Shown in pieces: positions 28,592 to 29,603 of a stretch of DNA of 64,000 bases. The position numbers and the translations under genes are program-made. The stretch is from Candidatus Helarchaeota archaeon (GTDB taxonomy: Archaea > Asgardarchaeota > Lokiarchaeia > Helarchaeales > RDOG01), in NCBI GenBank assembly GCA_019058315.1, contig JAHPZH010000006.1:96001-160000 (forward strand), given 5' to 3'. Under the pieces are notes generated by a model, which saw only the letters and a list, made by a program, of their open reading frames with translations, was not told the DNA's origin and made no database searches. How positions within the stretch are numbered: the stretch's first letter is position 1; the number at the start of each line of letters is the position of its first letter.

Positions 28592-28601
28592 GTAAATTTA
28601 A

Positions 28602-28758
28602 TGGTGCGGGGGATGGGAGTTTCACCAAAATATATAATATTTCGGATTCGAACCCATGAACTCCTACGAGACAGGATCTTAAGTCCTGCGCCGTTCGGCA
28701 CGTTTGTATGACCCCATACAAGTTGTCTCTTTTGTTTTACCAGCTTGGCTACCCCCGC
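28602..28758 (-). tRNA. tRNA-Leu(TAA); introns at ~21/22 (28694-28736, 43 nt) and 59/60 (28619-28646, 28 nt); CCA encoded
   Basis: Acceptor GCGGGGG/CCCCCGC, anticodon arm CAGGA CTTAAGA TCCTG, long variable arm; BHB helices TGGT/GCCG and TTCG/TGAA. Confidence 0.92.
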
Positions 28759-28868
28759 AAGGGTATTTTATAATATTTATTTTTAGTTTACAAACTATAT
28801 TCTTTTCTAAATTGATTACTCAATATAATTTTTAATGAGATTTTCATATTTAAGATTTAGAATTAAAG

Positions 28869-29067
28869 TGCCGAAGGAGGGCTTTCCGTCCAAATTCTAG
28901 TAGCTATTTGGTTTCGGACCCTCGATCTCCGGAATACGCGTTTATGGAGCTAAATCCGATAACTTTATGAGTCCGGCGCGTATTCTTCTTGATCATAATA
29001 GATCAAGATTTCTAACCAGGTTTCTCTCCAAGAAAGCTGAGCTTTCCGGGACCTAAGCTACTTCGGC
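28869..29067 (-). tRNA. tRNA-Met(CAT), elongator type; four introns at 15/16 (29021-29052), 23/24 (28980-29010), 38/39 or 37/38 (~28934-28964) and 59/60 (28883-28912)
   Basis: Removing 32+31+31+30 nt gives a 75-nt cloverleaf GCCGAAG TA GCTT AGCCTGGTTA GAGC G CCGGA CTCATAA TCCGG AGATC GAGGG TCCGAAG CCCTC CTTCGGC A. Confidence 0.85.
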
Positions 29068-29174
29068 TATGTTAATTCTTACAAGCTTTATTAAAATAAC
29101 CTTAGTTTATAGAGTTTACTATTATTTATATTAAACCTTTTTCTTAAAGAAATGAGTAAAACTAATTAAATGAA

Positions 29175-29250
29175 TGGAGCCTCTGGGGGGATTCGAACCC
29201 CCGACCATTGGCTTACAAGGCCAGCGCTCTACCAACTGAGCCACAGAGGC
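29175..29250 (-). tRNA. tRNA-Thr(TGT), intronless, CCA encoded
   Basis: GCCTCTG...TGGC CTTGTAA GCCA...GGGGG TTCGAAT CCCCC CAGAGGC TCCA. Confidence 0.96.
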
Positions 29251-29265
29251 ATTATTTAGATGATA

Positions 29266-29374
29266 TGGTGGGAAAGGTGAGATTTGAACTCACGATCCCG
29301 TGGTTTCTTTTTGATCCTTTACAATTTTCGGATATCCCAAGCCACGAATCATAGCCAAGCTAGACCACTTTCCC
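29266..29374 (-). tRNA. tRNA-Pro(TGG); canonical 37/38 intron (29305-29335, 31 nt); CCA encoded
   Basis: GGGAAAG/CTTTCCC acceptor, CGTGG CTTGGG|A CCACG anticodon arm, GTGAG TTCAAAT CTCAC T arm. Confidence 0.92.
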
Positions 29375-29379
29375 ATATT

Positions 29380-29603
29380 TGGTGGGGTTGAAGGGATTTT
29401 CACCGAAATTTCGATTATTTCGGATTTGAACCCTTGATAAGTCCTCTGGATAAAACTCGTTCATCCAAACGAGTTACTCCTAGTGGTACGCTCCAAAATT
29501 ACATCATCTGGAATCAGTATTTTTATTCTATTTTTCTGGAGCCCGTTGTCATACCGTGTTTTCTTAAGCTCACAATATGTGAACACATCTAGACCACAAC
29601 CCC
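29380..29603 (-). tRNA. tRNA-Trp(CCA); four introns at 15/16 (29559-29588), 37/38 (29475-29535), 43/44 (29441-29468) and 59/60 (29397-29424); CCA encoded
   Basis: Removing 30+61+28+28 nt gives 77-nt GGGGTTG TG GTCT AGCACGGTA TGAC A ACGGG CTCCAGA CTCGT TTATC AAGGG TTCAAAT CCCTT CAACCCC ACCA; BHB helices GTCT/AGAA, CTCC/GGAG, ACTC/GAGG, TTCA/TGAA. Confidence 0.88.

Follow-up and report, generated by a model that had tools for sequence, protein, structure and literature searches.

Within the window, i.e., the whole stretch of 64,000 nt analysed here, a tRNA gene of 199 nt lies on the minus strand and runs from 29067 to 28869. This orientation is given by the acceptor halves, GCCGAAG and CUUCGGC-A, which make sense on the minus strand only. 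The gene consists of five exons (15/10/15/21/14 nt) and four introns (32/31/31/30 nt), such that 124 of its 199 nt are intron. Exon 3 occurs once in this genome; of the 161 genomes of the class, 93 also have it as a single copy. The features, from the 5′ end of the gene, are as follows.

28869..29067, minus: whole tRNA-Met(CAU) gene, 199 nt, supported by ARAGORN on the spliced product and by an ortholog in genome G001
29053..29067, minus: exon 1, positions 1-15, with the acceptor 5′ strand, U8, A9, the D-stem 5′ strand, A14 and G15
29021..29052, minus: intron 1, 32 nt, in the D-loop at 15/16, with an inner helix of 3 bp and a hairpin
29011..29020, minus: exon 2, D-loop with G18 G19, A21, G22 and A23
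28980..29010, minus: intron 2, 31 nt, in the D-stem 3′ strand at 23/24
28965..28979, minus: exon 3, G24-A38, with the anticodon CAU at 28969-28967
28934..28964, minus: intron 3, 31 nt, in the anticodon loop, most likely at 38/39 (leaving A38)
28913..28933, minus: exon 4, anticodon stem 3′ strand, variable loop AGAUC, T-stem 5′ strand and T-loop positions 54-59 (UCCGAA)
28883..28912, minus: intron 4, 30 nt, in the T-loop at 59/60, of the form hBHBh′
28869..28882, minus: exon 5, G60, T-stem 3′ strand, acceptor 3′ strand and discriminator A73

ARAGORN calls the spliced 75-mer as tRNA-Met(cat) with a complete cloverleaf and all four stems formed, which confirms the coordinates, the four introns, their share of the gene and the 75-nt product put forward in the original prediction. 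The stems are of 7/4/5/5 bp, the 7-nt anticodon loop holds CAU, the discriminator is A73, and the D-stem (GCUU/GAGC) includes one G.U pair. The tertiary nucleotides U8, A14, G18 G19, A21, U33, G53:C61, U54, C56 and A58 are present, with C55 in place of U55, a departure from a near-universal base. Presented with the unspliced 199 nt, neither ARAGORN nor the Rfam tRNA model makes a tRNA call. The G+C content is 60% in the exons, 26-50% in the introns and about 29% in the genome.

The gene sits within a cluster of co-oriented tRNA genes (28601-29500, minus strand). Among its neighbours, tRNA-Pro(UGG) (29374-29269) has an anticodon-loop intron, tRNA-Thr(UGU) (29250-29175) is uninterrupted, tRNA-Leu(UAA) (roughly 28770-28601) has introns in the D-loop and the T-loop, and a tRNA ending near 29381, with its 5′ end beyond 29500, has a 28-nt T-loop intron. 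These neighbours encode CCA, whereas in the Met gene CUU comes after A73. At 29087-29096 (minus) the gene strand reads UUUUAAUAAA, an A/T-rich box 20-29 nt upstream of the mature 5′ end. An archaeal TATA box would lie at this distance; at a genomic G+C content of 29%, the box is weak evidence for one. A further, dense array occupies C3:627500-631800: its tRNA genes, about 20, all point the same way and many contain introns.

The host is an Asgard archaeon of the order Helarchaeales, and its assembly (5.79 Mb, 12 contigs) is 94% complete. The Rfam model recovers only 37 tRNAs from the whole genome. An archaeon should have more, so many interrupted genes seem to go undetected.

Splicing motifs and folding of the precursor

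In the BHB geometry applied here, intron bases n-5..n-2 pair with the four exon bases that precede a 3-nt bulge, and the cut on each strand falls after the second bulge base. Introns 1 and 2 have relaxed motifs, each with the single purine mismatch foreseen for the D-arm helices. The central helix of intron 1 (GCUU/GAGA) scores 3/4, with a G.A mismatch and an inner helix (h′) of 3, and that of intron 2 (GUUA/GAAU) scores 3/4, with an A.G mismatch, an outer helix (h) of 2 bp and an 8-bp inner hairpin displaced by an A.A mismatch. Intron 4 has the perfect T-loop helix that had been claimed for it (UCCG/CGGA, 4/4); its outer helix is the 5-bp T-stem and its 6-bp inner helix is offset, with one extra A (28889). 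On folding of the naked precursor, this is the sole motif predicted to form spontaneously (P about 0.86). T-loop introns at 59/60 with a perfect central helix are found in at least eight tRNA genes of the genome, both neighbours in the window included.

Intron 3 is the exception. As had been suspected, its central helix is poor in either register, scoring 2/4 at 37/38 and at 38/39. In the 38/39 register the only pairs are C34-G and U36.G, with an h′ of 3; in the 37/38 register h is 5, i.e., the full anticodon stem, and U38 would be left in the loop. Under published rules the motif is not BHB-like and, like that of the ortholog L021, which comes from a 4-Mb contig, it falls outside the published BHB classes. 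In each of the four introns, one or both flanking helices (h, h′) reach 2 bp or more. Base-pair probabilities of the central helix, which are about 0 for introns 1-3, were rejected as a diagnostic, since they are also about 0 for the well-formed introns 2 and 3 of the G001 ortholog.

Two EndA paralogues are encoded in the genome, one of 184 aa (C12) and one of 201 aa (C1), each with PF01974+PF02778. One of them resembles the catalytic alpha subunits of Crenarchaeota (E 4e-45), and its paralogue has diverged; judged by their sequences, the two fit a broad-specificity (alpha-beta)2 endonuclease. In Asgard archaea, an (alpha-beta)2 EndA with an L1 loop has been tied to a broad substrate range (PMC5829648).

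Folding of the naked precursor also predicts a long-range helix of 9 bp, with the following arms.

28977..28985, minus: 5′ arm of the 9-bp helix, the end of intron 2 and G24-G26
28932..28940, minus: 3′ arm of the 9-bp helix, the end of intron 3 and U39, C40

The arms are perfectly complementary, and the helix competes against both the anticodon stem and H2 of intron 2, its predicted P being 0.97 in the naked precursor versus 0.00 for the anticodon stem. In the predicted folds, the anticodon stem is regained when intron 3 is removed, and partly when intron 2 is removed. G001 has a shorter counterpart of 6 bp, in which one pair covaries, and its predicted folds behave alike. Helices of such length were reached in 22 of 300 shuffles, so the evidence for the 9-bp helix is weak, and it may set the order of splicing or may have no meaning. 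It was rejected as a BHB in itself, as no pairing of the four neighbouring splice sites puts cuts in bulges 4 bp apart.

Orthologs, strain variation and intron history

A spliced alignment and stem table were compiled for about 24 orthologs of the class. The closest relative, G001 (same family, sister genus), has a syntenic tRNA cluster with a 173-nt ortholog whose exons are almost identical, the one acceptor-stem difference being compensatory (A5:U68 here, G5:C68 in G001). Introns 1-3 are at the same positions in G001, and their sequences can still be aligned despite divergence; the hairpin of intron 2 shows compensatory changes. Central helices in G001 score 4/4, 3/4 and 4/4 at the nominal junctions, which are also the best registers; the homologue of intron 1 is a canonical BHB (H 4/4, h 2, h′ 9), and that of intron 2 has H 3/4, h 2 and h′ 9. 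Intron 4 is an exact 30-nt gap in G001 and is missing also from G003, G005 and G006. The positions predicted for the four introns, at 15/16, 23/24, about 38/39 and 59/60, are thus supported by comparison with orthologs. For the two D-arm introns the junctions are confirmed by distant orthologs of families f4 and f5, whose uninterrupted D-arms match the spliced D-arm GCUU-AGCCUGGUUA-GAGC.

The introns had also been described as nearly uniform in length. The lengths themselves stand; the significance does not, because the G001 introns are of 29, 29 and 41 nt, and the near uniformity reflects the usual insert size class of the genome (about 30 nt) and not a shared origin. BLAST gave neither copies of the four introns in the genome nor similarity among them, and so no evidence for transposition as their origin.

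An anticodon-loop insert of 30-61 nt is present in every ortholog found, with no intron-less ortholog among the about 24 of the class, while D-arm inserts number 0, 1 or 2 by lineage and T-loop inserts at 59/60 have a separate origin in three lineages. The anticodon-loop intron, shared to this extent, is probably ancient; the two D-arm introns would be older than the split from the sister genus G001, and the T-loop intron would be a recent lineage-specific gain. Another member of the order, Hel_GB_A (G005), has an ortholog in L015 (about 487-687) that is likewise interrupted four times, twice in the D-arm, once in the anticodon loop and, by 30 nt, within the 3′ acceptor strand. These inserts are placed differently from the ones here, a sign of independent gains, the D-arm and acceptor-stem junctions in the f3 orthologs (G003, G005, G006) being approximate only. 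In the two genomes of family f2, a pattern search found no ortholog, and matches in a 15-mer scan of genome contigs were mostly bacterial tRNA-Met anticodon arms.

The mature T-loop reads UCCGAAG here, AUCGAAG in G001 and G005, and ACCGAAG in G003 and G006. It is intron-free in these relatives, which marks the unusual bases at 54/55, on this comparison, as a lineage trait. More widely, the elongator tRNA-Met T-loops of the class (L003, L013-L042; here 28913-28918) lack the usual U54-U55 and occur as AUCGAAG, ACCGAAG, UCCGAAG, AUCAUGC, CUCGAAU and CUCAAAU. A54 or C54 together with C55 is unusual in an elongator tRNA.

Strain contigs over the locus were drawn from three other sediment data sets. 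The listed differences within the gene, about 16-17 substitutions and 4 indels, all fall within introns 3 and 4: intron 4 has 12 substitutions and the 4 indels, and the centre of intron 3 (i11-i23) has 5 substitutions. Among those listed, exons 3-5 have none; a further 36 differences of lower support stand outside the listing and each divergent contig has 2-4 unplaced differences, so the invariance of the exons is not fully proven. The 5′ half of the gene is covered only by near-identical contigs and by one divergent contig whose differences stand outside the listing. In strain X4, the inner-helix pair i7-i18 of intron 4 is changed in a compensatory manner from U-A to A-U, and the extra A at 28889, which keeps the motif from being canonical, has been lost. 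All strains share the same 4-nt H2 segment. No strain contig has a joint at any of the four introns, hence there is no intron-less allele among them. One contig of run X2 omits 32 nt at 29303-29336, the anticodon-loop intron of tRNA-Pro, with one replacement base; it is about 87% identical on its 28-nt side and is probably an intron-less tRNA-Pro of another organism, not an allele.

Identity of the tRNA and junction of intron 3

The gene is not of the initiator type, as it has G1:C72 and the anticodon stem CCGGA/UCCGG (no A1:U72, no G29-G31:C39-C41). Tighter genome-wide scans, two looser ones being too noisy, gave three credible CAU genes: this one and two of the initiator type (G29-31:C39-41), one with A1:U72 in the dense tRNA array (C3:~630603) and one that is interrupted (C5:~113903). 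The original prediction held that a separate intact elongator Met gene, together with the lack of a mature product, would make the present one a pseudogene; these scans found no second elongator CAU tRNA in the genome, although at 94% completeness a further Met gene may be missing from the assembly.

Genomic CAU and A73 are likewise found in archaeal tRNA-Ile2, in which the anticodon is modified to agmatidine and reads AUA, and no tRNA-Ile2 gene was identified elsewhere in this genome. That the gene is tRNA-Ile2 is hardly credible even so. The TiaS domain PF08489 was not found in the genome, by a search that was positive in 4/4 archaeal control genomes, and a tRNA-Ile(UAU) gene is present at C5:~412423 (minus; loop CUUAUAA, a 57-nt anticodon-loop insert, T-loop AUCGAAG); therefore, the CAU gene is taken to be elongator tRNA-Met, and the identity first proposed for it is supported. 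The acceptor stem also counts against tRNA-Ile2, since in archaea a GCCG-type acceptor usually marks elongator Met, and GGGCC marks Ile2. AUA is probably read without a CAU-type tRNA-Ile2 and, if so, would be decoded with UAU, much as in eukaryotes, instead of with agmatidine, as is usual in archaea. The tRNA-Ile(UAU) gene carries a further insert of 30 nt. A decaying pseudogene, i.e., one whose degenerate intron 3 motif and C55 reflect the loss of a working tRNA, is very improbable. It would account for a central helix in intron 3 that is, tied with L021, the weakest among 21 orthologs, for the non-canonical C55 and for the failure of the standard tools, ARAGORN and Rfam, to detect the gene. 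However, no other elongator tRNA-Met was found in the 94%-complete assembly, the exons are near-identical to those of G001 with a compensatory change, the listed strain variation lies within introns only, C55 is common to the intron-free T-loops of relatives, and the equally weak helix of L021 comes from a 4-Mb contig. The four-intron tRNA-Met gene is, on its sequence, real and very probably functional.

The original prediction left the boundary of the anticodon-loop intron uncertain by 1 nt and, since both registers score 2/4, neither wins on helix score here; it is the orthologs that favour 38/39. When both registers were scored across 21 orthologs, many had a classical 37/38 intron with a perfect CUCA/UGAG helix, the canonical intron of archaeal elongator tRNA-Met, of which intron 3 is the ortholog. 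In G001, G003, G005 and several f4 genomes 38/39 scores higher, the junction having slid by one base to give UCAU/GUGA, AUGU or AUGA. In their better-scoring register, 20 of 20 other orthologs have the loop CUCAUAA (A38). Cutting at 37/38 in an otherwise identical functional gene, giving the loop CUCAUAU (U38), has in its favour that the complete 5-bp anticodon stem would serve as the outer helix, that C32 would pair with an intron base lying three positions ahead of the 3′ cut and that this cut would fall in a 3-nt bulge, the same layout as in the many orthologs with CUCA/UGAG. This junction is nonetheless unlikely. The gene would be the sole ortholog of 21 without A38; G001 scores 4/4 at 38/39 and 2/4 at 37/38; and in the four f4 orthologs whose insert ends in a base other than A (U in three, C in one), the helix has 1/4 pairs at 37/38 against 3-4/4 at 38/39. 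Intron 3 ends in GUAU, as do the inserts of those f4 genes, and is one disruptive base from their 3/4 helix. Because of this shared end and of A38 in all 20 other orthologs, 38/39 is favoured, and we consider it the likely junction, the slid helix having presumably decayed to 2/4 in this gene.

Taken together, it is highly likely that this is a single functional elongator tRNA-Met(CAU) gene with four BHB introns spliced by EndA, intron 3 most likely being cut at 38/39. A precursor of about 199 nt would be transcribed, the four BHB inserts would be cut by an endonuclease of the two-paralogue (alpha-beta)2 type and the exons ligated, and the 75-nt product would then receive CCA. Intron 3 would be removed at 38/39, leaving A38, despite a central helix decayed to two pairs. 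Against this explanation counts the folding of the naked precursor, in which the 9-bp helix competes and no anticodon stem forms. It is conceivable, though rather improbable, that intron 3 is cut efficiently despite its two non-adjacent central pairs because the endonuclease reads the body of the mature tRNA, which would resemble the 'ruler' of the eukaryotic TSEN enzyme. In that case, cuts in the anticodon loop would be set by the anticodon stem and one pair from position 32 to the intron, and not by the BHB, and the 9-bp helix would force intron 2 or 3 to be handled before the anticodon stem forms.

Comparison with known interrupted tRNA genes

Up to three introns per tRNA gene have been reported in the Thermoproteales, and here there are four. 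The gene otherwise resembles the multi-intron tRNA genes of that order, which, according to Sugahara 2008 and Fujishima 2010, have non-canonical BHB introns in the D-, anticodon- and T-arm and a broad-specificity (alpha-beta)2 EndA. Heavily interrupted tRNA genes have already been published for Asgard archaea: in three genomes, 92-95% of tRNA genes have introns, often several and at non-canonical positions (Valentin-Alvarado et al. 2024, PMC11291895), and an average of 2.2 inserts per gene, with up to five in one gene, is given in a preprint that concedes the blindness of annotators to such genes as a limit of its own census (Goswami et al. 2026 preprint, 10.64898/2026.10.13.758758). Both studies centre on Atabeyarchaeia, Freyarchaeia and Jordiarchaeia, and their main texts name neither Helarchaeales nor Lokiarchaeia. 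The present gene is a further case, in a lineage unnamed there. Like the published genes, it has several short inserts (about 20-30 nt), some at T-arm and canonical positions and others in the D-arm, where annotators overlook them, against an (alpha-beta)2 EndA background; it differs in that its host belongs to Helarchaeales and in being missed by both ARAGORN and the Rfam tRNA model.

Helarchaeales can therefore be added to the Asgard lineages with extremely fragmented tRNA genes. Introns can make up 62% of the gene for an essential single-copy tRNA and hide it from standard tRNA finders, and annotations of this group will consequently list tRNA-Met as missing when it is not. The orthologs form a compact natural experiment, with an ancient intron that has slid, a shared pair in the D-arm, a recent gain in the T-loop and a decayed motif, and the T-loop gain shows compensatory changes at the population level. 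As such, the gene is a good substrate for gauging the real specificity of the Asgard splicing endonuclease; its most useful feature is the decayed motif of intron 3, a test case for that specificity.

Several short ectopic introns that form BHB-like motifs are also known from nuclear tRNA genes of Cyanidioschyzon merolae (PMC3728597). There, unlike here, the host is a eukaryote, the enzyme is TSEN and some of the genes are permuted, whereas none is permuted at this locus.
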